A stretch of 64,000 nt of DNA, taken from assembly GCF_947507565.1 (NCBI RefSeq), contig NC_089177.1:490648-554647 (forward strand), written 5' to 3'. Origin of the DNA: Oscarella lobularis. Its lineage: Eukaryota. The translations under genes and the position numbers were made by a program. The notes under the pieces were generated by a model. It saw nothing but the letters and a program-made list of their open reading frames with translations. It did not search any database and was not told where the DNA came from. Below, one piece after another: positions 3,713 to 63,578 of the stretch (the first letter of the stretch is position 1; the number at the start of each line of letters is the position of its first letter).

Positions 3713-4498
3713 ATGGATTGGTCACCCTATTACGTTCCCTTCAACGTATCATCACTCTGCTCGAGCGCCTATCATCACCCTGCCTATCGTTATCACCCAT
3801 ACGCAGGCCACCCGGTCGTCTCGCCTACGGCTCATTCGTGGTCGACCGCCGCCGTCGCCGCAGCTGCCGCCGAACAAGCTGATCGCGACATCTACGCGCT
3901 ACTACGACCTCCCTACTCGTATAGCTCCCTGATCGCGCTAGCCATCCAATCGTCGTCGGAGAAGAAGATGACTCTGAGTGGCATCTACAATTTCATTATG
4001 GAAAAATTTCCCTACTACAAGAAGTGCAAGTCCGGCTGGCAGAATTCGATACGACACAATTTGTCGTTGAATGACTGCTTTCAAAAGGTCGCGCGCGAGG
4101 AGGGCGACCCGGGCAAAGGCAGCTATTGGACTATCGATCCCAATTGCGACAAGGCGTTCGAAAACGGCAGCTTTCGACGACGTCGCAAGAAGCGTGCTAA
4201 TAGTAGTCCGGCCCCTGAAAAACCCGCCGCCGCCGTCATCGGCGGCGAGAATGCGCGGAACGCCATCGAAGCCCTACCCCCGTATCTCTCAATGCCTGTC
4301 GCACCTGGACCCGTATCCGGTTACGGCACTGCCCACGGCGAGACGTCATCATCGAGCGACGCTTCCGATTCGGGTTGCGCGAGTCCCGTCTCGTCGCCGC
4401 GACTCGCCTACGGTGCGAGTTTGTCGGGACCGCCGCCAGCGGCGACGATTCAGTCGCGTCGGTACAGGACGTTTTCTGTCGCCGAATTGATGTCGTGA
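3713..4498 (+). CDS. Forkhead-box transcription factor (FoxL-like), single exon.
   Basis: Forkhead domain [15 protein letters not shown]...[76 protein letters not shown]. The subfamily assignment is tentative. Confidence 0.8.
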
Positions 4499-25682: not shown

Positions 25683-27956
25683 ATGGAACTGAGACACATG
25701 CCCTCGCATCCGTCGGGCGGCCCCCGAACGATCATAGACCGTCCAACCTACAACGAAGACCAATTCCACAGCGGATTTCGACCAGCGCCGACACCGACAC
25801 CCAAAACTCTGATTCAACGCCTCAAATGCGCTCGTCCGAGTCGCGCCAGTTTGACTCGCTTTCTCCTAGCCCACTTCCCCATCGTCACAACCCTAATGAA
25901 TTACAAAATCAGCTGGAAAGACAAAATAATCGGCGATCTCGCCGGCGGCCTAACAACAGGCATCATGACAATACCTCAGGGTCTCGCTTACGCATCTCTA
26001 GCTAACGTCAATTCAGTCTACGGACTCTATACGGGAATATTTCCAGTTATCATCTACGTTCTCCTAGGCACATCGCAACACTTGTCTATGGGTGTCTTCG
26101 CCGTTGTGACGATCATGATCGGCGATGCTGTCCTAGCACAACTCCATGGAGCCAAATCTATTATTGCAAATGAGACTGCAGCTAATACATGTAATGGAAC
26201 CATCCTTACAGTTACTAATCTCACCAATAATGGAGCTATCCTCAATGGGACGATATCTGATGAAATTCCACTTCAGAAGGAGGATATTGCTATTGCTCTC
26301 ACTTTGGTGGTGGGCGTCGTTCAAATACTTTTCTACGTATTTCGACTTGGTTTTGTAACGCGATTCATGTCCGATGCAATGGTGAGCGGTTTCACGACGG
26401 GCGCCGCCTTTCACGTTGCCGCGTCGCAAATCCGTCACGTGTTCGGCTTGGAACTCAGCTATCGGAGCCCCTTCGTCGTACCCAAAACAATCTACGGCGT
26501 TTTCAAGAATATTGCCGATACGAACGCCGCCGCCTTTATTATTGCCGTCATCTCGATCGTCTTTCTTGTTATTGTGAAATACGTCAATCAGCGTTATCAG
26601 AAGAAACTTCGATTTCCCATACCCGGCGAACTCATCATCGTGATAATCGGAACTGGCGTCTCATACGGCGGAAAATTTGAAGAGAATTTCGACGTGAAAG
26701 TCGTCGCCGATTTGAGATCCGGCGTGCCGACTCCGCGCGCGCCGCGTTTTGACGTCATTGTGGACTTGCTTTCCACCTCGTATCCCTACGTGATTGCCGT
26801 CGTTTCGTTCGCCGTCAATATGTCCATAGCGAAATTGTTTGCAAAGAAGTTTCGTTATCAGATGAACAGCAACCAGGAACTACTCGCCTATGGAACGTCG
26901 AACATATTCGGCTCCTTTTTCAATTGTCTCGTTGCGAGCGGTTCGCTCTCGCGCTCGGCCGTCTACGCGTCGTGCGGCGGTCGAACGATAGTCGGAAGCT
27001 CGTTTTCGGCGCTTCTCATTCTCATCGTCGTTCTCGCTATCGCGCAGCTGTTCGCCGCCCTACCGAAGGCCGTGCTCGCCGCCGTCATTTTCGTCGGCCT
27101 TCGCGGTCTCTTCGTCCAATTTCGCGACGTAAAGCGTCTCTATCGACTCAGTCTCAGCGACATGTTCGTCTGGATTGTTACGTGGCTTGCGACTGCCGTC
27201 GTTTCCGTCGACATCGGTCTCGCCGTCGGGATCGGTTTCTCCCTACTCGTCATCATCTATCGAACGGCGTGGCCTCACCACACGCTTCTCGGTCGAATGT
27301 CCGATACGGATTTGTATCGCGAAGTGAGTCGCTATTACATGTGCGAAGAGGTCGACGGCATCAAGATATTTCGCTACGAGGCGTCGCTCTGTTTCGCCAA
27401 CGCCGAGTCGTTCAAAGCGGCCCTACTCAAGTCGCTGGGATCCATCAATTTGGATGACCCCGATTCTGCATTGGGGGAGAGCGTACAGACGACGCGTTCG
27501 AACGCCGTCAACGACGACGACGACGATTCTCCGCCCGAGTATAGACGCAATTTATCGGCAAGGGAATTAGCTCCTCAAAGGAAGTCTCCTATTCATACAG
27601 TTGTCGTCGATTGCACCGTTGTTACGTATTTGGACTCGCTTGGGGTTGGGCTGCTTATAGAGCTGACGAAGGATCTTGAGGAGGCCGGCTTGCAGATGCT
27701 CTTAGCCGGTTGCCGTTGGCGTGTAAGGCAGAGTCTCAAGCAAGGGCTCTATCTCGACAAAGTCGGGTCGGATCATCTTTTTGTCACGATTCATGATGCT
27801 GTAGTATTTGCTCAGACGGGGCTTAGACTGATGCGTAAGAGCGGCAGTGGTGAGGTGAGTTGTCAACCGGCTGACGAGGCTGGAGAAGGGTCTGGTGACA
27901 AGAGTTCCTCTATTTCTAGTACTCATAGCAATATTCTTTCCGAAACTTCTGTCTAG
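25683..27956 (+). CDS. SLC26/SulP-family anion transporter with a C-terminal STAS domain, single exon.
   Basis: 757-aa ORF with many TM helices: GDLAGGLTTGIMTIPQGLAYASLANV, GLYTGIFPVIIYVLLGTSQHLSMG. The STAS-like C-terminus reads HTVVVDCTVVTYLDSLGVGLLIELTKDLEEAGLQMLLAGC. Confidence 0.8.
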   Translation: MELRHMPSHPSGGPRTIIDRPTYNEDQFHSGFRPAPTPTPKTLIQRLKCARPSRASLTRFLLAHFPIVTTLMNYKISWKDKIIGDLAGGLTTGIMTIPQGLAYASLANVNSVYGLYTGIFPVIIYVLLGTSQHLSMGVFAVVTIMIGDAVLAQLHGAKSIIANETAANTCNGTILTVTNLTNNGAILNGTISDEIPLQKEDIAIALTLVVGVVQILFYVFRLGFVTRFMSDAMVSGFTTGAAFHVAASQIRHVFGLELSYRSPFVVPKTIYGVFKNIADTNAAAFIIAVISIVFLVIVKYVNQRYQKKLRFPIPGELIIVIIGTGVSYGGKFEENFDVKVVADLRSGVPTPRAPRFDVIVDLLSTSYPYVIAVVSFAVNMSIAKLFAKKFRYQMNSNQELLAYGTSNIFGSFFNCLVASGSLSRSAVYASCGGRTIVGSSFSALLILIVVLAIAQLFAALPKAVLAAVIFVGLRGLFVQFRDVKRLYRLSLSDMFVWIVTWLATAVVSVDIGLAVGIGFSLLVIIYRTAWPHHTLLGRMSDTDLYREVSRYYMCEEVDGIKIFRYEASLCFANAESFKAALLKSLGSINLDDPDSALGESVQTTRSNAVNDDDDDSPPEYRRNLSARELAPQRKSPIHTVVVDCTVVTYLDSLGVGLLIELTKDLEEAGLQMLLAGCRWRVRQSLKQGLYLDKVGSDHLFVTIHDAVVFAQTGLRLMRKSGSGEVSCQPADEAGEGSGDKSSSISSTHSNILSETSV

Positions 27957-30648: not shown

Positions 30649-33213
30649 ATGGCATCGGTGATCGGTCTAAAACCGCTCGAGTACGTTCACATATTGGACG
30701 TTAACACGAGCGTCTCGTATGTGGAAACTGGCCCTCAAACAATATCTCTGCAAGACAACGAACGACTGACGGCGGGCCCCCATCCGTTCGTCGTCGTGCC
30801 CCCGGGTCGTTTCTGCATCGTTGAAGATCCCATCGATGCTACGACGTACGAAAAAGGAAAGCAGCCGCGCGTGCGCTTCGGCTCGCTCGACGTGCGCTTC
30901 CACGGCGAGCCTTTCTTTCTCTATCCGGGAGAACGACTTCAAGGAGCACCCAATTTAGCCAATTACAAGCCGGCACTCAAACCGCTTCCAGTCATAAAAC
31001 CGAACCACGGCCTCCGCCTCCGCGCTCGACACGATCACGTCGACGAAAACGGAACGAAACACGTTGCAGGCGAAGAATGGCACCTGGAGGGTCCCCTCAC
31101 CTACAAACCGACTCCGGACGCGGAAATCGTCGACACGATTTCTCCCGCCATCGTCGGCCCAAATCAAGCGCTTCGCTTTCGCGCGCGCGAGCGTTTCGTC
31201 GATCGCACGGGCGCCGAACGCGTCACAGGCGAAGAGTGGCTCGTTCGCGAAGCGGGCGCCTACGTGCCGCACGTCAGCGAAGAAGTCGTCGGCGTCGAGT
31301 CGGCGCACACGCTCACGCGCGATCGGGCGCTGCACGTGCGCGCGCGCGTTACGATCGACGGCGACTCGGCTCTCGGAAGCGCGCGCAAAACCGGCGAGGA
31401 GTGGCCTGTCACGTGCGAAAACGTATCCACCTTTATACCGGACGTGACGGAGGAAGTCGTCAAAGTCGTCAACAAAACGATTCTGACGAATATTCAATAT
31501 TGCGTTGTCGTCAATCCGGTTATCGACGGGAAAAATCGTCTCAGTCAACGACAGCTGCGTCGAGGTCCCGCCGAGTTTTTCCTATCGCCCGGGGAACACC
31601 TGGAACGCGGCATTCAGTCGGCGTTCATACTCGCCGTCGACGAGGCGCTCGTTCTCCGCGCAACGGAGGCGTTCGTCGACGACGAAACGCATCGCGCGCC
31701 CGGCGATCGATGGATGATCGAAGGTCCGACGTCGTACGTGCCGCCGACTCAAGTCGTCGTCGAGCGTCAATCGAAAGCGATACCGCTGGGCGAGAACGAA
31801 GGCGTTTACGTGCAAGACACGCAGACGGGTGCAGTGATCGCCGTCATGGGACCCCAGTCCTATCTACTCAAAGAACACGAGCAGCTCTTTGAGAAAAAAC
31901 TACCGGACGACGTCGAGGAGATGCTGCGACGCGGCGGCGCCATCGGCGACGACGACATTCGCAAGGTCGCTTATTTCGAATCGTCGATCGATCCGAGTCT
32001 CGTTCGATCCGGTGCGCGCGACGCGACGCGCGTCGTTTCCTATCGTTGCCCGGGCAACGCAGCGGTGCAGGTATACGATTATCAGCGTCGCACGGCGCGC
32101 GTCGTTTTTGGCCCAGATATGGTCATATTGGGTCCCCACGAGGATTTCAATGTGTTGAGCTTGAGCGCTGGGAAGCCGAAGCGTGAGAATGCGCTTCGCT
32201 GTCTCGCGCTCATGCTCGGACCCGATTTCATCACCGACATCATCGTCGTGGAGACGGCGGATCACGCGCGTCTGCGCATCAAACTTGCGTTCAATAATTA
32301 TTTTGACGTGAATTGCGACGACGTGGCGGACGCGGCGAAGATTTTCGCCGTGCCGGATTTCATTGGATTCGCCTGTCGCGACGTCGGGAGTCGCATTCGA
32401 AGTGCCGTCGCGCAGACGCCGTTCGACGAGTTCCATCGGCACTCGTCGCGGATTATACGAGCGTCCGTTTTCGGGCTCGACGCTCGGGGCAAAGTGAAGA
32501 ACGAGTTGCGATTCGCCGCGAATAATCTCGTCGTGACGAACATCGACGTGCAGAGCATCGAGCCCGTCGATCGTCAGATGAGCGATAGTTTGAGCAAGAG
32601 CGTTCAAATGGCTATCGAGATTGCCACGCAGGCGATCGAGCGTCAGGCGTCGCAGGAGGCGCGGAGACGCGAGCAGGAAGCGCGCGGCGTCCTGGAGCGG
32701 GAGAAATTGAAGGGGGAAATGGACGCGGAACGCGCCCGCATGGAGCTCTATGAATTACAGGCGATCAGTGCGGCCGTGGAGTCGACCGGTCAAGCGCAGG
32801 CCGAAGCCCAAGCGCAGGCTGAACGGCTTCTCATCGAAGGCGAGAGTGCGATCGAGTCGACGAAGCTTTTCGCCGAGGCGCAGGATGTTGAACATTCGGC
32901 GCTTCTCGACGCGAAGAAGAGATCGAATGAGGGCGAGTTGGGTTACGTGCGCGCGACGAATGAGCTCGAGTTGGCGAAGGCGAAAGCGTTGGCTGGGATC
33001 GAGGTCGGGAAGTTTCGGTCAATGGTGAGCGCGTTGGGATCGGAGACGGTTGCGGCGATCGCCCGCGCTGGGCCCGAGTCGGACATGCGTTTGTTGAAGT
33101 CGCTGGGGCTGCAGTCAACGTTGCTGACGGATGGGAAGAGTCCTGTCAATCTGTTCAACGTCGCTGGGGGATTGGTTGGAGCCACGATGGCAACGTCAGG
33201 CGATGCCCAGTGA
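30649..33213 (+). CDS. MVP: Major vault protein, intronless.
   Basis: Single 875-aa ORF. The N-terminus MASVIGLKPLEYVHILDVNTSVSYVETGPQTISLQDNERL matches the MVP start [37 protein letters not shown]. MVP repeats, a shoulder and a coiled-coil cap-helix region follow. Confidence 0.9.
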   Translation: MASVIGLKPLEYVHILDVNTSVSYVETGPQTISLQDNERLTAGPHPFVVVPPGRFCIVEDPIDATTYEKGKQPRVRFGSLDVRFHGEPFFLYPGERLQGAPNLANYKPALKPLPVIKPNHGLRLRARHDHVDENGTKHVAGEEWHLEGPLTYKPTPDAEIVDTISPAIVGPNQALRFRARERFVDRTGAERVTGEEWLVREAGAYVPHVSEEVVGVESAHTLTRDRALHVRARVTIDGDSALGSARKTGEEWPVTCENVSTFIPDVTEEVVKVVNKTILTNIQYCVVVNPVIDGKNRLSQRQLRRGPAEFFLSPGEHLERGIQSAFILAVDEALVLRATEAFVDDETHRAPGDRWMIEGPTSYVPPTQVVVERQSKAIPLGENEGVYVQDTQTGAVIAVMGPQSYLLKEHEQLFEKKLPDDVEEMLRRGGAIGDDDIRKVAYFESSIDPSLVRSGARDATRVVSYRCPGNAAVQVYDYQRRTARVVFGPDMVILGPHEDFNVLSLSAGKPKRENALRCLALMLGPDFITDIIVVETADHARLRIKLAFNNYFDVNCDDVADAAKIFAVPDFIGFACRDVGSRIRSAVAQTPFDEFHRHSSRIIRASVFGLDARGKVKNELRFAANNLVVTNIDVQSIEPVDRQMSDSLSKSVQMAIEIATQAIERQASQEARRREQEARGVLEREKLKGEMDAERARMELYELQAISAAVESTGQAQAEAQAQAERLLIEGESAIESTKLFAEAQDVEHSALLDAKKRSNEGELGYVRATNELELAKAKALAGIEVGKFRSMVSALGSETVAAIARAGPESDMRLLKSLGLQSTLLTDGKSPVNLFNVAGGLVGATMATSGDAQ

Positions 33214-33428: not shown

Positions 33429-35216
33429 TTGGGCGCCAATAGAGTTATGAGCGACTTCTATGAGGACTTTATTCGGCCCCAGCTAACGGAGCTGATGAAG
33501 AAAATTGACGTTACCGACCATCAAATGTTGAGCTACATGTACCAGGAAAAAATGATAACGGAGGACGACCAACACAATCTGGCAGCCACGTCGCAGATGT
33601 CACCCTCGGAGAAACAAAGATTGTTTTTTCAGACCATTCTAGCACGCGGGCTGGGCTCGGAAGCCAAATTCCGCACGTTTTGTACCGCTTTGACGAAACG
33701 ACGGGGAGCCCACATGGACGATTTGGCTCAGTTGCTTTTGGCCCACGCTAAGCTAGAAGGTAAGCTCATGAATGTGTTGTTCTAACAAGTTAGTGAGGCA
33801 TATCTGCTAGATAGAACACAGCACTCCATGACGTCACGAGGTACCTTACTCTTTTTTATCGCGCTTCGGTACGTGAGGAAACATGACCTGTTGTACAGTA
33901 GGTTTGAAGCGGTCCAGAGCACATGGCGAGTTGCAAACAGCAAAAAAATCAAAGGCTTCTTCACCTGCACCTGAAGGTACCGCAGGCCCGTCATTAGCTG
34001 CGGCGACCATGTTGAATTTAAATCTTTGAGTTTTTTTGTTGCAGATGAACCAGACGGGCCAAGCCGCCGTCGACGCATGAAGCGAAAAAATCCCAGTCGA
34101 AAAGCGATGCGAGAAGGTCGCCGTTCGCAAGAAGCGAAGCGAAAAATTCATCTCTTGGTAGTTTGTGCTCTACCAAAAGAGTTGGAAGCCGCAAAGGATG
34201 CTATAGGAGCACAAGAATGGGAAGAAATCAGGAGTGGAACAATGGGCTATCGCGTCTTTGTTGCTGATGTAACGTGGAAGAATCATTCAAAGAAAAACGA
34301 AATTCGTGTGACTGTAGGAGTTGTAGCTCAATCAAAATCAGGGGGTCAAGAGACTTCCAACTTGCTTGGATCTCTTAACAGTCAATTTGATGTCAATTTT
34401 CTTGCCATGACCGGCTGCTGCGCTGGTGTTGAAGACGTTGACTGCTACAGCGTTATAGTAGCGGATAAGACCACCGCTTTGGAAAGAGAAAAGCATCTCG
34501 AAAGCGCAGTTCAACATCAAGTGGGCCCTGGTGGTGATCTAGAGCACGAATTAATTCAAGCTGTGAATTCACTTCTGATGGATTTGAAGACGTCAGACTG
34601 GCTTGATCCAGAGGTTTCTAGCACTGCTCCACCAAGTCCTCGGCTAGTCCGCGAGTCATTGCTCAAAGCAATTGAGGACAGTGGGAAATCCAGCAAGGAC
34701 GCCATAGAAAAAGCCGTACAGGAGATAAAAAATGTCAACAAAGATATCTACCCAAACATCCTAAATAAGCTCGTCAAAGAAGGCTTGATAGAAAAGCGAG
34801 AAGAAAAAGAGCCTCAGATGCGAATCCTATACTGCCTGTCTGCCGAAGGTGCCAAACACGTTAGTGAGCTTCCCTTCGGTCTTCTATCGCCGGACAAAGA
34901 TCCTTCTGTGCGTGTAACGACACTGTTCACGTGTCAGGACGTTCTCGTCAATCTTAAGAGTGTTCTTCCGAAATTGAAGGAAGCCACAGGCCAACGAAAG
35001 ATAACCGGTGTTGACATGGAAGCTCATCATTTTATGGTGCAGGCAAAGCATTTTTTCCCCAAGTCTTCGTGCATTGTAATGAAAGGGGTTTCTGACCACG
35101 GATCGCCAGAATCAAAAGAAAAATACAATCAAGAGTATGCGTCCAAGTGTGCGACATTGTTTTTGAAGTATTTCTTGGAAAAGAACTTTGAGTATCTGGA
35201 GAAGAAAAAGAACTAA
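33429..35216 (+). CDS. CARD (death-fold) - PNP_UDP nucleoside-phosphorylase/nucleosidase fusion protein. Exons 33429-33759 and 34045-35216, joined by a 285-bp phase-1 GT-AG intron.
   Basis: Exon 1 is a CARD-like domain that is about 65% identical to the CARD of the CRADD-like gene at 37338: FYEDFIRPQLTELMKKIDVTDHQMLSYMYQEKMITEDDQHNL...FRTFCTALTKRRGAHMDDLAQLLL. Exon 2 is a PNP_UDP_1 domain: IHLLVVCALPKELEAAKD...VFVADV...VGVVAQSKSGG...FLAMTGCCAGVEDVDCYSVIVAD...ITGVDMEAHHFMVQAK...CIVMKGVSDHGS. MTAN-type catalytic E/E/D positions appear conserved. The splice frame was verified: G + at gives GAT. Confidence 0.7.
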
Positions 35217-35316
35217 TTTTTTTGACTTTTGATGTCTTTGCGTTTTTGCTTGCTCGTTGCACCTTGTTGCGCTCCCATTGGTACAGGTATGGATACAAGG
35301 CTGAGCATGCGCAAAG

Positions 35317-37233
35317 ATGGACGCTATTTTGAGAAAGAACTTCGTGTTTCTGCGTCGCAATCTTCGCCTGAAGAAGGAATTGTTAGCTTATATGTTTCAG
35401 GAACATTTAATCGATGACGAGGAATATGATCAGTTGGAAAACGAAGCCAAATCAGAGCCGGAAAGAGTTAGGTACTTCATTATGACGGCAATGAGAGGAA
35501 AAACGAAGTCCGATTTACGAAGACTCGTTCAAATGCTCAGAAAAACAAACCAAGAGCCAGTCGCTCACCGTCTCGAACGTGCAAACGTCAGAAAAAAGAA
35601 ATGGTCGAAACGACTGAGGAAAAGGGCGATGCCTTACCTTTCTAGTCTGGTAGTATTTGTGTTTGTACACAAGTTGCTCTGGCGTACGTACCAGGCGAAC
35701 AAACCGCACGTTGAAAAGGTCCTCAAAATAATCTTCGGTAAAAGGCCAGAAATTAAAGAAGGAATTATGCCGGAGAACTCCAATAGCGACACTTCTGACC
35801 CATCAAAAAACCACACACTTGAGATTAAGGAAAGAGTAAAACTGCGCTTTTATTTTCCAAATCTACCAAAAGACACCTACAAAATAGTGGAAGAAGGTCT
35901 CCGATCCAGTCTTTCACTTTCTCTGGATCTTCCCAGAGACCTCTTAGAGGTGTTTGCAAAACCGTTTTCGTCAGTTCTTGTCATTGTCATTCTACCTGGC
36001 GCTGCTGCGCTGAAATTGTTTTCCATTTTGTCTAAGCCTCTACCTAATTTTCTGTATGAAAAATACGGGCCAACTCGTCTTAAGATTGAGAGTTTGCGCC
36101 CAATGAATATTTTATTTGAGAAGGCTTTTGGTATGTAACTTGTCAGAAGATAGAGTATAACAGTACATTTTCTATTTCCTGTAGAGCGGAACTGGGGCTC
36201 ACGAGCTTGGATCCAAGGTCAAGTGGCCCGTCTAAACGAATGTAGGAAAAATTTTCATCAACTCAAGACTCAGTTATCTTACTGGCTACCCCCTCCGTGG
36301 TGGCAAAAAGCAACAAAAAACCGTTTCAGGAAATTTCAGAGTCAACTGGATCACGTTCAAGATGAAATGCAGGCCTTGAAGGACAGTTTCAGCAAGCTGA
36401 GTCTCCTGCCTAAACCCCAGGCTGTTGAAGTTTCTACGCAAACCGAATTACAAGAAGGTACAGGGAACGCCTAGTAGGTGCAATGATTGATTAATTAGTT
36501 ATTAATCCTAGACGATGGCAGATGGTCAGAGACAATAATGTTTCGGGAGTCTTTTTCTCCACAAAGCGGTTTTGCCCTAATAATTAACACCGTTTCACCT
36601 GAAAGTGAATTACATTCTCAAGCACAATCAGAGACAAATAGTCTTCTGTCTACGTTCAAAAAGTTGGGTCTTGTTTGCAAAACAGAAACAAGCGTTAAAT
36701 CAGGTGACGTGAGCGATACACTCGAAAATTTTGGCAATTGCGACTACGCAAAGTACGACTGGCTAGTGTGCTGTCTCCTGGTAGCCATGGAGAAGATGAA
36801 AACAGGCCGTGACTCAGCGGAAGACTGCTCGCCTCTGTGTCTTCACGACATTATGGCGCCGTTTAGAGAATCTAGATGCCCTACCCTTAGTGGAAAGCCT
36901 CGCGTTTTTATTATCATTTCGCCAGCTGGAAGGTCAATTGATGAAACTGGCGATATGCACGTGGAATTCAAAGACGATGAATGGACTTTGCGAGAGGGTT
37001 ATGTTCCCAAAGACTGCCTGCTGCTAGTGTTTCATTACCCCGCTCCAGAGGACAAGCGCTCTTCTTTCGCTACATCATTGCTTGATAATCTACAACAACA
37101 AGGTGGGCAGTTGAACGATGTGGAAGAACTGCTCTTTATGGCATATGATCAACTAATTGATAGTCTGCTTTGGTCTTCGGTGTGGAGTAAGAATACGTTG
37201 AGTAAGGCAATAGAGGTGGCTCTTGAGACTTGA
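35317..37233 (+). CDS. CARD - coiled-coil - caspase-like (peptidase C14 fold) protein that lacks the catalytic dyad, i.e. a pseudo-caspase. Exons 35317-36130, 36185-36457 and 36512-37233, all joined by about 54-bp phase-1 introns.
   Basis: N-terminal death-fold: ILRKNFVFLRRNLRLKKELLAYMFQEHLIDDEEYDQLENEAKSEPERVRYFIMTAMRGKTKSDLRRLVQMLRK. Middle exon is a coiled coil. Last exon aligns to caspase p20/p10: GFALIINTVSPESE...LLSTFKKLGLVC...YDWLVCCLLVAMEK (AME where caspases have SHG) ...RCPTLSGKPRVFIIISPAGRS (SPAG where caspases have QACRG). Donor, acceptor and phase were checked at each junction. Confidence 0.65.
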
Positions 37234-37337
37234 CAAGTTCTACATTTTTTTGCGCGATGATGTTTTATAGACTTTTTCAGACTTTTATTTTGCCCATTGG
37301 AGTTGAAGGGGAGCACACGTGATCTGCTGCGAGGACT

Positions 37338-37946
37338 ATGAGCCGCTACTACGAAAAGTGCATTCGGCCTCGACTAACGGAGCTGATGAAGAGAATCGAC
37401 GTTACTGATCATCAAATGCTGAGCTTCATGAACCAGGAAAAGATGCTGTCGGACAACGACCAACACAATCTGGAATCCACTTCCCTGATGCGACCCTCTG
37501 AGAAAGATAATCTATTCTTTCACACCATTCTAAGAACCGGACTGGCCACGGAAACTCAGTTCCGCGCGTTTTGCGCCGCTTTGACGAAACGACGAGGAGC
37601 CGAAAAGGACGATTTGGCTCAATCTCTTTTGAAAGGCGCCGGCCTCGAAAGTGAAAGCGCGTCGCGTACTTCGTTTGAAAGGAAGCCAACTTCTAAAGAG
37701 CTGAACAACTTATCGAAGCTAATAGCGAGCGACGACATGTGGAAGCCGCTCGGCAGATGTCTCGATGTTCCGGACTCGAAGTTGACCGAAATCGCAGCCA
37801 CGCATCATTCTCCTCGAGAACGAGCGTACCAAATGCTACAGTCGTGGGTCGAAAAGAACTCGAACGCCGCAACGGTGAAACTACTGTGCGAAGCACTCTG
37901 TGAAGAGGGTCGCGACGATACGGCAAAGGAAATTTTTGGCTGGTGA
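37338..37946 (+). CDS. CRADD: CRADD/RAIDD-like adaptor (CARD + death domain), single exon.
   Basis: 202 aa. The N-terminal CARD is a paralogue of the CARD at 33429. The C-terminal death domain reads ELNNLSKLIASDDMWKPLGRCLDVPDSKLTEIAATHHSPRERAYQMLQSWVEKNSNAATVKLLCEALCEEGRDDTAKEIFG. Size and architecture match human CRADD (199 aa). Confidence 0.65.
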   Translation: MSRYYEKCIRPRLTELMKRIDVTDHQMLSFMNQEKMLSDNDQHNLESTSLMRPSEKDNLFFHTILRTGLATETQFRAFCAALTKRRGAEKDDLAQSLLKGAGLESESASRTSFERKPTSKELNNLSKLIASDDMWKPLGRCLDVPDSKLTEIAATHHSPRERAYQMLQSWVEKNSNAATVKLLCEALCEEGRDDTAKEIFGW

Positions 37947-38158: not shown

Positions 38159-40776
38159 TCAAGACGCCGTTTTTGTCCAGCTAGGAACTCCGTATGCCGG
38201 ATCGTCGACCGCACTCTGCTTCAGCCTATTTCCGGCCATCATATCGTCCGCCGTCACTTCGCTATACGCTTCGTCGTCCTCTTCACCGTCATTCGTAACA
38301 TTGATGTATCCAGGTTGATCCCTAGCCACATCCTCGTACGCTCCTAGACCTTCTTCCTCAGGAAAATCGACGTTGTGATACGGTATTCTTCCTCTTGCTC
38401 CTGCCGCCGCAGGAGCAATCGGTCTGTCCTCGGGATAGTTAACGTTGAAGTAAGGCGGATTATCGGCGGGCGGCATCTCGTACGGCGATTCCTGAGTGGC
38501 AAAACGTCTTGGCTTAGGAATCGTCGCGTCATCAATCGTCATTTCGTCCAAAATACTATCAATGACGTCAATTTCCTCCTTGCTAATCGTTAAGGTTTTG
38601 TTCGACGGCGTAATTTGTCGGGGCATCGGAACTGAAGCGGACGCCGCAATCGCCGCCGCAACCGCCGCTCGATCGGTACTCAGTTTTCGTTTACTTGTCG
38701 GAAACTCGTCCCTCGCTAATGTACTGTAAGGACTCATAGTGCGATTGGCATGTTCGGCCAGACCGGCCATTAGGTCGTCGAGCTCAGCGTCGTCATAAAG
38801 CGGGGCGTCATCGTCAGGAGCAACAGCGGCGACGGCAGCGGCGGCGACTTTCTCGTTCGGAAGAACCAATCGATCGTATCCGACAGATCCTCTCTTCGGT
38901 TTGGGAGGAACGACTTTTTCTTCTCTCGGTGGCAGCGGATTTTTCTTCGGCGGAGGAGGTTGATGCCGCGGCGGTGATTCCGCAATTGCAAATTTTCCGT
39001 CGCCAGCCGAAAAGAGAGTATCGTACGGCGTGACCGGCTTCACCGCACCGGCGTCAATCTGATCCTCCGTTTCGTAAAAGTGCTCTTCAGGATTTTCCGG
39101 AATCGACGTCGTCTCGTTGACCGTCACAGTCTGAACAAATCGCTGTTTGAGGGAACCGTGCGACGGCACCGCAGGCGGCTCCGTCACTGTACTTGAACGC
39201 GGTTTAGCTACAGGGGGAACGGGCTGCGGTGCTCTTGCACTCCCTGGTCGATTCGGTAGGGGATTTGCTGGCGTCGGCTGCGCTTGTACCATGTCGGCTT
39301 GGCGAAGGCTCGTGTGCTGTTGGGAGCCGATTAGTTTCACGTTGTTGTGCACGTGGTGAAAGATTTCGTTTCCCAGTCGGGTGCCGAAGTAGAAGACGCC
39401 CGGGCCCGTTTCGCATTTTCTGCCCGCTTCGAATGTGAATTTCGTGTAGTCGCGACCGTAGCGTCGCAGATACTTGAGCGGCCAAACGCAGATGATTTCG
39501 TTGGAGAGAACACTGGCAAGAGTTATGTTCAGTCCCGATATGACGAGATGGTATTCGCCGACCAGTTGCAGTGCCGTCGAAGCTTCAGTCGGGATAATCG
39601 ACACACGATAACGTTTTTCTGTAACAAAAAAGGCGTCATTTTGAGGTAAAAAATCTATCCCTGGCTATTTATAGGAAGTAAGTGTACATGTCATTTCTTT
39701 ATATTATTCTGTGCTAGAAACCCGTTCACAAGGGATCTCGTCTTCTTACCAAGCTCCATACTGCTATAAAGCGTGTTCTCCTGGACGCCCAGCGGCTGAT
39801 TGGGAACAAGAAACGGGTTTCCTTCGGGAGGCGGCATCGCCATTTGCGGTTGCGGCTGCACAAAAGGATTACCGGCACCTCCTTCCATTGCAAACGGCAT
39901 TGGTGCTTGCGACGGCGGCTGCAACGCCAACGGATAACCGGCGTCTCTTCCGCCCTGGATTGCAAACGGGGGCGGCGACAAAGGTGGCTTTCCTCCGAAA
40001 CCGTCGCTTGGAGAACCGAACGAACCGAACGAAGAATTCTGAGGTTCTGACATGTATGCGGGTGGCGGCGATCCCGGCGGAAGCGAACCGGCGTCGTCGC
40101 CGAAGGCGACTCGCGATATACCGTCGATCCAAACGTCGAGATCGCGTTGAGTCGGCAGAGCGAATCGATAGTGCAGCACGGGCGTGAGAAGGTCGAGAAC
40201 GAAGCTTTTCGATTTATGCGTCGTCTGATTGACGGCCGTCACTTCGCGCAGGGGAATGATTCGTCGGCTGTTCTGTCGACGAGCGTGGTTCATGTCGGGA
40301 TAGTACTCGAGTCGCGCGCTGCCTAACGAGCCGGCACTGCGCAATACGAACCACCTCTTGTTCCACGTCTATAAAGCGAAAACGTTATTTGTTTGCGGTG
40401 AGAGCCTTTTGATTTCGGGGAAGGACGCGCGGTGGGGGAGGAGTCGCGAGGATAAGATCTAGCTGACCCAAACGCTGCAAAAATGGCAGCATTTGGCTCT
40501 GAGTTTGTTGACTTTATACCCATACCAGAGACTCGGACTTAGTCAACGGACTGGGGGGACTGCGTTGTAATGGGAGGGGCTTCGTGCTTGCAAAACGATC
40601 TATATTTAGTTTTCATTCAGATCTCTTTTTAAGTTTTGCTACGATAGCAGTATTCTTCGGTTTGCTGCTGGAGTGCGCTTTCGCAGGGGATTAGATTTTC
40701 GTTGCCGTTTTACCTTGAAGGCTCCTGGTTGTTGAGGGCATTTTTCCATGTAGCCCTCTAATGCCACGTCGGTCAT
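38159..40776 (-). CDS. DOK/FRS-like docking protein (PH + IRS-type PTB). Exons (minus strand): 40714-40776, 39750-40368, 38159-39618.
   Basis: Exon 1 reads MTDVALEGYMEKCPQQPGAFK. Exon 2 reads TWNKRWFVLRSAGSLGSARLEYYPD...FALPTQRDLDVWIDGI and completes the PH domain. Exon 3 is the PTB: VGEYHLVISGLNITLASVLSNEIICVWPLKYLRRYGRDYTKFTFEAGRKCETGPGVFYFGTRLGNEIFHHV. A Pro/Tyr-rich tail follows. Introns are phase 0 then phase 1, GT-AG, verified. Confidence 0.65.
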
Positions 40777-62261: not shown

Positions 62262-63578
62262 TTATTCCCACCAAAAACTTACCGAAAAGCTGACGCTCAA
62301 TGATTTTACAAAGTGCCAGCACATCGGCGGTATGTACAACATCTCGCCCTCCTTTAGCACACCATCCCAATAGACAGCATCGCAGAACAAAGGATGCTCT
62401 GCTACGTCAACGCACTCCACGTCGACTTGACTCGTATTCTTCAACATATCCGACCGATGAGCATATAAGAAGTCCGTCTGCGATTTCTCGTACAGTCGCA
62501 CATACTTGGACCCCACGACCTGAGCCAACAGATTCCGCTTGGGATCATAGTGAAGTGGCGATACCGTTCCCTGGGGACCAAACCAAGCGTTGACGTCGAC
62601 GTCATCGTCGCTACTACTGATACAGCAATAATCCGGTATACATATATCTCTTTTGAGTTCGGGAATTTGATCGAATAGACGATGCTGAGCCAAGTAGCCC
62701 TTTTCCACGGACTCTCCACCGGCTACGTATTTATCAATAAACTCATTCATCGTTATTAGTGATTGTCCCCACGTTTCGTCGGTATATCGAGCGCCCAATT
62801 CGACGGGAACAGTACGCGAACCGGCAACGCGTTTTATATAGTCCAGCGTCCATCGGCGATCGTTGGGGGCGGGCCTAAGTGCCGGCCAGTGAGTCATAGC
62901 ACCCTCGACGATGATTGGCTGCTCTCGATTCATATATCGCGTTTGAAACGAGTGCAACGAGGGCACGCGAATTCGTTCGAGAGTCGATCCTTTTCCTTGG
63001 TATCCGATCGACGCCGGCTCGGCGTTTCGATCTCCTTCGTCGAGCCTATAGCGTTTCGATTCGCTCGTCTCGCTTGCGCGTATGAATGCGTTGAGTCTCG
63101 ATGCTACTTTGGTGAGCAGATCGTCCTGAATGGGAGCTCCCATCAATAAGCCGCGATCGCACGCTTCTAACGCCTTCCGAATCGATTCCAATTCGACGAC
63201 GATGGCGTTTACGCACGTGGTCATCGTTCGTAGTAGGCTCGCGTGAGAATAGGCGATTCGCCATCCCATTTCGACGTCTTTCCAATAGCCCGTGTTCAGC
63301 TTTTCCCAGATGAAATCGAGCGCCGCGTCAACGCGAGTCGACGCCTCGTCGAGATTTTGCTTCGTCTTCACTAAGCGAGCGGCTTCGTCTAGGAGATGAA
63401 GGAGGGGTTTTGAGCCCGGGAGACGATCGATTTTCGCTCTGTCGTCGTCTTGGAGCTGTAATTGAACTTTTAGGTCAGCGAAAATGTCTTCGAGATGGTA
63501 GGTAAGTGAGCTGGATCCCGATGGAGTCTCCCTTGCCATCCCTAAAAGACTTTTAAACTCCAACGATGTCCCGGACAA
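62262..63578 (-). CDS. KDM8: JmjC-domain lysine demethylase/hydroxylase KDM8 (JMJD5), single exon.
   Basis: 438 aa. FIWEKLNTGYWKDVEMGWRIAY...RTVPVELGARYTDETWGQSLITMNEFIDKY...GYLAQHRLFDQIPELKRDICIPDYC...AWFGPQGTVSPLHYDPKRNLLAQVVGSKYVRLY...NTSQVDVE...FSVSFWWE is near-collinear with human KDM8. Confidence 0.9.
   Translation of the reverse strand: MSGTSLEFKSLLGMARETPSGSSSLTYHLEDIFADLKVQLQLQDDDRAKIDRLPGSKPLLHLLDEAARLVKTKQNLDEASTRVDAALDFIWEKLNTGYWKDVEMGWRIAYSHASLLRTMTTCVNAIVVELESIRKALEACDRGLLMGAPIQDDLLTKVASRLNAFIRASETSESKRYRLDEGDRNAEPASIGYQGKGSTLERIRVPSLHSFQTRYMNREQPIIVEGAMTHWPALRPAPNDRRWTLDYIKRVAGSRTVPVELGARYTDETWGQSLITMNEFIDKYVAGGESVEKGYLAQHRLFDQIPELKRDICIPDYCCISSSDDDVDVNAWFGPQGTVSPLHYDPKRNLLAQVVGSKYVRLYEKSQTDFLYAHRSDMLKNTSQVDVECVDVAEHPLFCDAVYWDGVLKEGEMLYIPPMCWHFVKSLSVSFSVSFWWE

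Follow-up and report, generated by a model that had tools for sequence, protein, structure and literature searches.

A CARD-containing pseudo-caspase of the sponge Oscarella lobularis and its candidate role as a non-catalytic regulator

Can a protein that carries both the recruitment module and the protease fold of a caspase, and neither of the catalytic residues, act as a regulator of death or immune signaling in a sponge? This question is raised by a gene at positions 35317-37233 of a 64,000-nucleotide stretch of the genome of the homoscleromorph sponge Oscarella lobularis (contig NC_089177.1, positions 490,648 to 554,647 of the forward strand; hereafter, the window). Pseudo-caspases are key switches of vertebrate cell death, where cFLIP decides among apoptosis, necroptosis, and survival; to our knowledge, almost nothing is known of such regulators in early-branching animals. 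An earlier note on this DNA had placed a CARD-containing caspase-like gene at these coordinates, and they are indeed those of a real gene: it has three exons on the forward strand, its limits as read from the DNA are exactly the start and stop codons, and its spliced translation of 602 amino acids (aa) is identical to NCBI XP_065828206.1 (P0002, isoform X1, Oscarella lobularis). This product and a second predicted isoform, XP_065828209.1, are both named “uncharacterized protein” at NCBI and are the sole close protein matches in the databases; exact look-ups of the two for an annotated locus returned no record. By homology, the protein is a member of the caspase family (MEROPS C14A), but it falls short on every catalytic count, which is what defines a pseudo-caspase; its role as a cFLIP-like regulator is a more evenly balanced matter.

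The last exon had been read in the earlier note as following the caspase p20/p10 fold, and sequence and structure searches bear this out. When the full protein was searched against all PDB sequences (phmmer), only caspases were recovered, with zebrafish caspase-3a at the top (E = 2e-7) and caspase-8, -3, and -6 next. Scanned alone, the C-terminal 240 residues matched Pfam Peptidase_C14 (PF00656) at 39.8 bits (E = 5.4e-10; curated cut-off 21.4 bits), whereas this family was not reported at E <= 1 when the full-length 602-aa protein was scanned against Pfam. Since Peptidase_C14 is reported for the isolated domain only, the gene could escape whole-protein domain scans. An exhaustive phmmer search of 1.84 billion (1.84e9) representatives returned 143 matches, nearly all of them to residues ~372-520, and all named matches (20 of the 143 were looked up) were animal caspases or caspase-like proteins. 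Against a caspase hidden Markov model made from these matches, the domain scored 118 bits, aligned to positions 13-204 of the 249 in the model. Whether queried with the full protein or with the isolated domain, a word-index search returned Oscarella copies and no others.

AlphaFold2, supplied with an alignment of the phmmer matches, modeled the p20 core with a predicted local distance difference test score (pLDDT) above 90 and the p10 part with a score of 66-84. The best 50 Foldseek matches of this model in the PDB were all caspases (caspase-7, procaspase-8, caspase-3, -1, and -9), with template modeling (TM) scores of 0.6-0.8, normalized to the target, over ~240 columns. Since the alignment behind this model was rich in caspases, agreement in fold does not count as evidence separate from agreement in sequence. 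The domain retains motifs that determine the fold, for example CPTLSGKPRVFII. On sequence and modeling, the reading stands that residues 378-598 form a complete p20+p10 caspase fold in one chain. The comparison with paracaspases and metacaspases proposed in the earlier note matched only caspases, and these two identities were rejected: the 60 listed PDB sequence matches and the top 50 fold matches are all animal caspases.

The catalytic positions were placed by three alignments (HMMER pairwise, profile alignment, and MAFFT), all of which agree; residues R64, H121, Q161, C163, and R207 served to verify the numbering of the human caspase-3 reference. The column of the S-H-G motif reads V453-A454-M455, with alanine in place of the catalytic histidine, and that of the Q-A-C-R-G pentapeptide reads I498-S499-P500-A501-G502 (ISPAG), with proline in place of the catalytic cysteine (Table 1). 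Both losses had been claimed previously, with the strings given as AME and SPAGR; the losses hold, whereas the two registers were each one residue off relative to the aligned V-A-M and I-S-P-A-G. These errors leave the conclusion unchanged, since no histidine or cysteine stands at the dyad in either register. None occurs at the dyad columns or within two residues of them in the three alignments, nor did these reveal a His/Cys dyad elsewhere in the domain, a check that had been suggested. The other histidines of the domain are at residues 397, 474, 512, and 537 and the other cysteines at residues 418, 439, 449, 450, 468, 472, 485, and 531; all of these fall at non-catalytic positions in the alignment, with Cys449/450 and Cys485 opposite conserved non-catalytic cysteines of caspases.

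The substrate pocket has been lost as well, including the S1 residues equivalent to Arg64, Gln161, and Arg207 of caspase-3. The loss of the dyad, the oxyanion glycine, three S1-pocket residues, and part of loop L3 implies that the protein can neither cleave after aspartate nor bind an aspartate P1 residue in the manner of a caspase, in keeping with the earlier claim that it cannot be proteolytically active as a caspase. With the whole Asp-binding S1 pocket gone, it is neither a caspase-type protease nor a usual substrate-binding “dead” enzyme. Two further Oscarella sequences were available for comparison, an ENA genome (ERZ18545485; loci L001/L002) and a Logan contig (L004; 96.9% identical). 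The dead active site is shared by all three genomes (VAM; II[S/A]PAG), the cysteine pentapeptide being IAPAG in the other two and ISPAG here. Also conserved in all three is the SIDETGD stretch (residues 503-511) of the linker between the p20 and p10 parts, which aligns with the IETD site of caspase-3. Since Asp506 and Asp511 are kept throughout, it is possible that this exposed linker could be cut by a partner caspase.

The N-terminal domain is, from its sequence and predicted structure, a CARD nearest in type to those of CED-3 and caspase-9, as the earlier note had proposed in naming a CARD there. As a single sequence it scored 14.9 bits against Pfam CARD (PF00619), below the cut-off of 23.9. 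A profile made from the domain, its orthologue, and three relatives matched CED-3 (1.3e-7), caspase-9 (1.4e-5), Apaf-1 (2.7e-3), and RAIDD (3.5e-3) in the PDB. AlphaFold2 applied to residues 1-372 predicted helices at residues 2-7/9-15, 20-28, 34-42, 47-59, 64-76, and 80 onwards (pLDDT 76-90), and the resulting bundle superposes on the CARDs of Apaf-1 and caspase-9 with TM scores of 0.80-0.82 and a root-mean-square deviation (rmsd) of 1.6-1.9 A in Foldseek (Apaf-1: TM 0.82, rmsd 1.6 A). No DED was matched at the N-terminus by Pfam, by the CARD profile against the PDB, or by Foldseek, and a single CARD is present there. Membership in the CARD9/CARMA group was considered and rejected: the CARD9 CARD is a marginal match (E = 0.33, versus 1e-7 for CED-3) and the coiled coil starts ~180 residues past the CARD.

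The CARD is followed by a region of ~190 residues (96-290) that was absent from the earlier note. It opens with the most conserved block of the protein (residues 93-146), which is 100% identical in the orthologue and comprises a run of eight basic residues, RKKKWSKRLRKR, and then a hydrophobic helix, AMPYLSSLVVFVFVHKLLW (93-122; Kyte-Doolittle hydropathy 1.5 over residues 104-122). A paralogous CARD protein, P0075, also carries a basic stretch after its CARD. A second hydrophobic stretch, VLVIVILPGAAALKLFSIL (residues 217-239; window 35965-36033), reaches a Kyte-Doolittle value of 2.45 over 19 residues. Residues 96-365 had no match outside Oscarella in the exhaustive search of 1.84e9 representatives, and the middle region had no Pfam match, no Foldseek match, and a pLDDT below 50 in both the full-length and the 1-372 models. 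The two hydrophobic stretches may be membrane-associated or may form a buried core. A single-pass membrane topology through residues 217-239 was not adopted, since the CARD and the caspase-like domain would then sit on opposite sides of the membrane.

The central coiled coil claimed in the earlier note is likewise recovered. AlphaFold2 predicts two helices, at residues 277-303 and 309-343, and a home-made heptad score peaks at residues 316-345 with a value of 15.6, compared to a maximum of 11.6 in 200 shuffles. The models thus depict a coiled coil that is real but short, at ~70 residues (~277-345).

The gene is also predicted to give a product that lacks the caspase-like domain. An alternative acceptor in exon 3, downstream of the main one, shifts the frame into an early stop (Table 1), and the predicted isoform X2 (XP_065828209.1; P0001), at 367 aa, ends in ...LQEDGQRQ and terminates before the caspase-like domain. 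Comparison of P0001 with the window sequence and the ENA locus L001 indicated that the alternative AG and the TAA are both conserved in the latter. Isoforms X1 (602 aa) and X2 (367 aa) are both NCBI predictions.

We favor a reading in which this protein is a CARD pseudo-caspase regulator that acts without catalysis in CARD-driven death or immune signaling, in the manner of cFLIP, and we consider the case for and against it to be about evenly balanced. The protein would most likely have descended from a CARD (initiator-type) caspase. Its CARD would recruit it to a CARD platform or adaptor, which might be the product of the neighboring CRADD-like or CARD-effector gene or an Apaf-1/NLR-type protein, while the coiled coil would bring it into dimers or oligomers. 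Through the conserved p10 dimer face, the caspase-like domain could then pair with itself or with an active caspase, and such pairing would block or tune activation of that caspase, much as cFLIP-L controls caspase-8. Limited to the CARD, the middle region, and the coiled coil, the short isoform that is predicted would act by competition for the platform alone, as cFLIP-S and CARD-only proteins do.

Several observations on conservation and selection bear on this reading. The orthologous coding sequence (CDS) in L001 is intact (605 aa) with shared splice sites, and it lies in the syntenic order sulfate permease, ENTH, major vault protein, CARD gene A, pseudo-caspase gene, CARD-Death gene, and IRS-type gene. 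All four exon indels relative to L001 (4/4) are multiples of 3, including two in the caspase-like domain, while intron 1 has a 5-nt indel. Pairwise ratios of nonsynonymous to synonymous divergence (dN/dS; Nei-Gojobori, versus L001) were 0.89 for the CARD, 0.82 for the caspase-like domain, 0.47 for the coiled coil, and 0.35 for the middle region, the lowest value in the gene; neighboring values were 0.75 for the effector exon of gene A, 0.36 for the CARD-Death gene, 0.19 for the major vault protein, and 0.08 for the IRS-type gene. When 114 random substitutions, the observed number, were simulated, the whole CDS was stop-free with P = 0.008.

Other results weigh against the regulator reading. 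Across the three genome pairs, dN/dS of the caspase-like domain (residues 366-597) is 0.68-0.88, which is not significantly below 1 (p ~0.3), and in the same simulation the domain alone was stop-free with P = 0.15, which is not compelling. The strongest constraint falls in the middle region, with its two hydrophobic stretches, and a cFLIP-like model leaves this unaccounted for. The reading frame of the Logan contig is open and carries a 4-nt insertion that alters the last four residues only. Lastly, no partner caspase came to light, and no Oscarella protein was among the 20 named matches of 143. A dN/dS near 1 and a stop-free P of 0.15 mean that recent constraint on the caspase-like domain is not demonstrated.

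A first alternative is that the caspase-like domain would be a decaying remnant, with selection acting on the N-terminal part (the content of isoform X2) and exon 3 drifting neutrally, devoid of any function of its own. This is unlikely. In its favor, dN in the domain is about equal to the divergence of introns and untranslated regions and its dN/dS is not told from 1, the middle region is the constrained part, the open frame of the domain alone is unremarkable, a frameshift has arisen at the 3' terminus in the Logan contig, and the conserved alternative acceptor removes the domain altogether. However, the domain is intact in three genomes with both of its L001 indels in frame, and its core motifs are still caspase-like in both Pfam score and model confidence. 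The high ratio is matched by that of the gene A effector domain, which suggests that a high dN/dS is a property of the cluster and not evidence of decay. Moreover, the closest active caspase found in the exhaustive search is ~32% identical at most, in a library that probably includes the O. lobularis proteome, since P0001 and P0002 come from that collection; a neutral open reading frame (ORF) would not have survived such divergence with its fold motifs kept. By this indirect argument, an old dead state and long-term selection on the fold would fit the sequences. The gene itself is a lineage-restricted pseudo-caspase, found only in Oscarella genomes.

The genomic neighborhood bears on a second alternative. 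The pseudo-caspase gene is the middle of three same-strand CARD genes spaced ~100 nt apart (intervals 35217-35316 and 37234-37337). Upstream, gene A (P0154) matched two PADLOC anti-phage models, PDC-M60C (2.7e-17) and a “PN-superfamily” effector (2.9e-8), and had weak Pfam matches to CARD (0.008) and PNP_UDP_1 (0.04); a homologue search recovered only itself and its orthologue. From its sequence, gene A looks like an animal CARD fused to a bacterial-defense-type nucleosidase/phosphorylase-like effector. Downstream, gene C has a CRADD/RAIDD-like architecture. Genes A and C have CARDs that share 66% identity, suggesting that exons were duplicated and domains shuffled inside the cluster; the identity of either to the CARD of the pseudo-caspase is only ~30%. 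The closest CARD paralogue of the pseudo-caspase, P0075 (L003 6001-8506; ENA ERZ18545485, contig ptg000081l), lies ~800 bp upstream of a 442-aa ORF with a Pfam match to a GT4-conflict glycosyltransferase (4.9e-77), and small proline-rich linker exons between the two suggest a single CARD-glycosyltransferase gene. The pseudo-caspase protein itself had no match in PADLOC, and tblastn of its caspase-like domain detected no second such domain in the 64-kb window. The other genes around the cluster are ordinary (Table 1). Collectively, the sequences of the CARD neighbors fit an immune-type cluster of CARD-effectors better than a classical apoptosome or PIDDosome setting. As a separate observation, the motif CCCATTGG (a reversed CCAAT box) occurs at 35274, before the pseudo-caspase gene, and at 37293, before the CARD-Death gene, in each case 36-43 nt ahead of the start codon; with 3 occurrences in the window versus 0.93 expected, it is not significantly enriched.

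Such a setting would suit a protein that associates with itself and serves an immune-type CARD network as scaffold or adaptor, with no caspase under its control and with the dead fold as a mere dimerization or binding module. The protein would then gather CARD-effectors, such as the nucleosidase-like product of gene A or the CARD-glycosyltransferase paralogue. The tandem cluster with CARD-nucleosidase-like and CARD-Death genes, the glycosyltransferase that adjoins P0075, the coiled coil upstream of the caspase-like domain, and the fast evolution that is usual for immune genes all argue for this role, but the low identity of the pseudo-caspase CARD to the mutually similar A and C CARDs means that co-assembly is not implied, and we regard the scaffold as improbable.

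Sponges live with dense microbial communities, and the protein could instead be a bait or tripwire, a caspase mimic that is bound by microbial anti-caspase inhibitors or modifying enzymes and reports them via its CARD. The dN/dS of ~0.8-0.9 in the CARD and caspase-like domain with the frame kept is indirectly consistent with this, as is the position of the gene among defense-type effector genes. However, inhibitors that mimic substrates would bind poorly to a domain with its S1 residues lost and L3 deleted, and the proposal is wholly speculative; we consider it very improbable. It is similarly a long shot that the pseudo-caspase is part of a sponge-specific CARD-wired immune module in which sensors are coupled to interchangeable output or bait domains. 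The outputs might in that case be, with equally little likelihood, the nucleosidase-like effector (gene A), the GT4 “conflict” glycosyltransferase (L003), the Death adaptor (gene C), and the caspase mimic, and the mimic might, at the same slim chance, be a bait for microbial caspase-attacking factors or a brake on host caspases. If true, such a module would give early animals an equivalent of integrated decoys and of cFLIP, with an evolutionary origin independent of both. That the protein is still a protease through a His/Cys pair elsewhere in its sequence, for which the further histidines and cysteines of the domain could be invoked, is close to refuted, as all of these are more than two residues away from the dyad columns in the three alignments, Cys449/450 and Cys485 align with conserved non-catalytic cysteines, and the domain has lost the Arg, Gln, and Arg of the S1 pocket and has a shortened L3.

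Table 1. Features of the pseudo-caspase gene, its aligned caspase-3 positions, and neighboring genes (window coordinates).
Feature	Position	Strand	Details
Exon 1	35317..36130	+	residues 1-271 and first base of codon 272; CARD, basic/hydrophobic block, most of middle region
GT donor of exon 1	36131	+	read from sequence
Intron 1	36131..36184	+	54 nt, GT..AG; conserved in L001
Exon 2	36185..36457	+	residues 272-362
Intron 2	36458..36511	+	54 nt, GT..AG
Exon 3	36512..37233	+	residues 363-602 and stop codon
Alternative acceptor AG to stop	36520..36538	+	AG 36520-36521, 10 nt downstream of main acceptor; frame shifted; TAA 36536-36538
CARD	35317..35601	+	residues 1-95; predicted six-helix bundle, helix 1 broken in two (H2-7 / H9-15)
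Basic and hydrophobic block	35593..35754	+	residues 93-146; RKKKWSKRLRKR, then AMPYLSSLVVFVFVHKLLW
Middle region	35602..36130	+	residues 96-271, on to ~290 in exon 2; ~190 residues in total
Coiled-coil region	36199..36405	+	predicted helices 277-303 and 309-343, split by LPPPWW; pLDDT 56-76
Caspase-like (pseudo-caspase) domain	36556..37218	+	residues 378-598; p20, short linker, p10, including last strand NTLSKAIEV
Caspase-3 Arg64, here His397			profile alignment
Caspase-3 His121, here Ala454	36784..36786	+	codon GCC; 143/168 aligned caspase domains have His there
Caspase-3 Gly122, here Met455			profile alignment
Caspase-3 Gln161, here Ile498			profile alignment
Caspase-3 Cys163, here Pro500	36922..36924	+	codon CCA
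Caspase-3 Arg164, here Ala501			profile alignment
Caspase-3 Gly165, here Gly502 (kept)			profile alignment
Inter-subunit linker	36931..36978	+	residues 503-518, SIDETGDMHVEFKDDE; predicted disordered, AlphaFold2 pLDDT <50 at 503-515
Caspase-3 Ser205-Trp206-Arg207 (loop L3), here deleted			profile alignment
Forkhead transcription factor	3713-4498	+	
SLC26-type sulfate permease with STAS	25683-27956	+	
Major vault protein gene, single-exon	30649-33213	+	strong purifying selection
Gene A (upstream neighbor)	33447..35216	+	CARD, linker, and nucleosidase/phosphorylase-like effector domain; NCBI P0154, 529 aa, “uncharacterized”
Gene C (downstream neighbor)	37338..37946	+	202 aa; CARD-like and Death; CRADD/RAIDD-like architecture; Pfam Death 1.4e-15
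IRS-type PTB-domain protein	38159-39604	-	strong purifying selection
JmjC/KDM8-like protein	62262-63578	-	

The gene would be a useful entry point to cell-death and immune regulation in a homoscleromorph sponge, within the limits set by its restriction to one genus and its near-neutral rate. Its location between a CARD-effector gene and a CRADD-like gene hints at a sponge CARD-based immune or death cluster. CARD pseudo-caspases are already known as a kind, with caspase-12, the Mytilus Mg2-like protein, and the Haliotis proteins discussed below as examples. The present protein stands apart in its sponge host, in having lost the S1 pocket completely, in the 270-residue insert between CARD and p20, and in its place within a cluster of CARD genes with unusual effectors.

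Among known proteins, amphioxus XP_035699598 and its relatives are the best sequence matches to the caspase-like domain (E down to 2e-15) and have a coiled coil directly upstream of the caspase domain, as here. In contrast to the sponge protein, they carry a tumor necrosis factor receptor (TNFR)-type ectodomain and a transmembrane helix instead of a CARD, and most are catalytically intact. In P0012 (Branchiostoma) and P0019, a single chain carries TNFR-type cysteine-rich repeats as well as a transmembrane helix, a coiled coil, and a caspase domain, with the catalytic cysteine of P0019 replaced by serine (QASQG); P0008 (Branchiostoma) has two coiled-coil and caspase units and no TNFR match.

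Non-catalytic paralogues that bind an active paralogue and restrain or enhance it include CSP-3 and CSP-2 of Caenorhabditis elegans and CASPS18 of Aedes aegypti (the last cited in PMC3141678). Unlike the sponge protein, CSP-3, CSP-2, and CASPS18 lack a CARD and a coiled coil and are recent paralogues of an identifiable active caspase, and CSP-3 is a small subunit only. Dead caspase copies are common in invertebrates, since the dyad histidine or cysteine is missing in 23 of the 166 caspase domains of the matched proteins (pseudo-caspase and orthologue excluded). Two Haliotis proteins, XP_071084111 and XP_071115293, have Pfam CARD and Peptidase_C14 domains with altered active sites; they are among the better sequence matches and are of similar length (598-604 aa), but they are 32% identical over p20, their pre-caspase regions differ, and they are equally uncharacterized. 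The Mytilus Mg2-like protein is likewise a CARD caspase homologue with a lost dyad (PMC7836458). These invertebrate CARD homologues lack the histidine, the cysteine, or both at the dyad, and their catalytic loss is independent of that in the sponge protein.

Caspase-12 keeps its dyad residues and the direct arrangement of CARD and p20, whereas the sponge protein lacks both dyad and S1 pocket and has ~270 extra residues between CARD and p20. In mammals, this CARD and caspase-domain protein has little or no proteolytic role and has been proposed to modulate other CARD caspases (PMC11121540).

The sponge protein is like cFLIP in placing a death-fold module for recruitment ahead of an entire caspase fold in which both catalytic residues are replaced. 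A long cFLIP isoform has the pseudo-caspase domain and a short one is without it (PMC11121540, PMC7586951). The resemblance to cFLIP drawn in the earlier note holds for the dead caspase domain and would gain a further point from the predicted short isoform; it does not extend to the tandem DEDs or to descent: cFLIP has two DEDs where the sponge protein has a single CARD, and it lacks the middle region and coiled coil. Furthermore, cFLIP is a close paralogue of caspase-8 and adjoins it, whereas for the sponge protein no parent caspase is detectable by identity (<=32%), nor is there one within the 64-kb window. Without orthology, any functional likeness to cFLIP would be convergent. If a dead caspase with a CARD and a predicted short isoform does act as a regulator in Oscarella, this would suggest that non-catalytic look-alikes have come to regulate caspase platforms more than once, with one case near the base of the animals.

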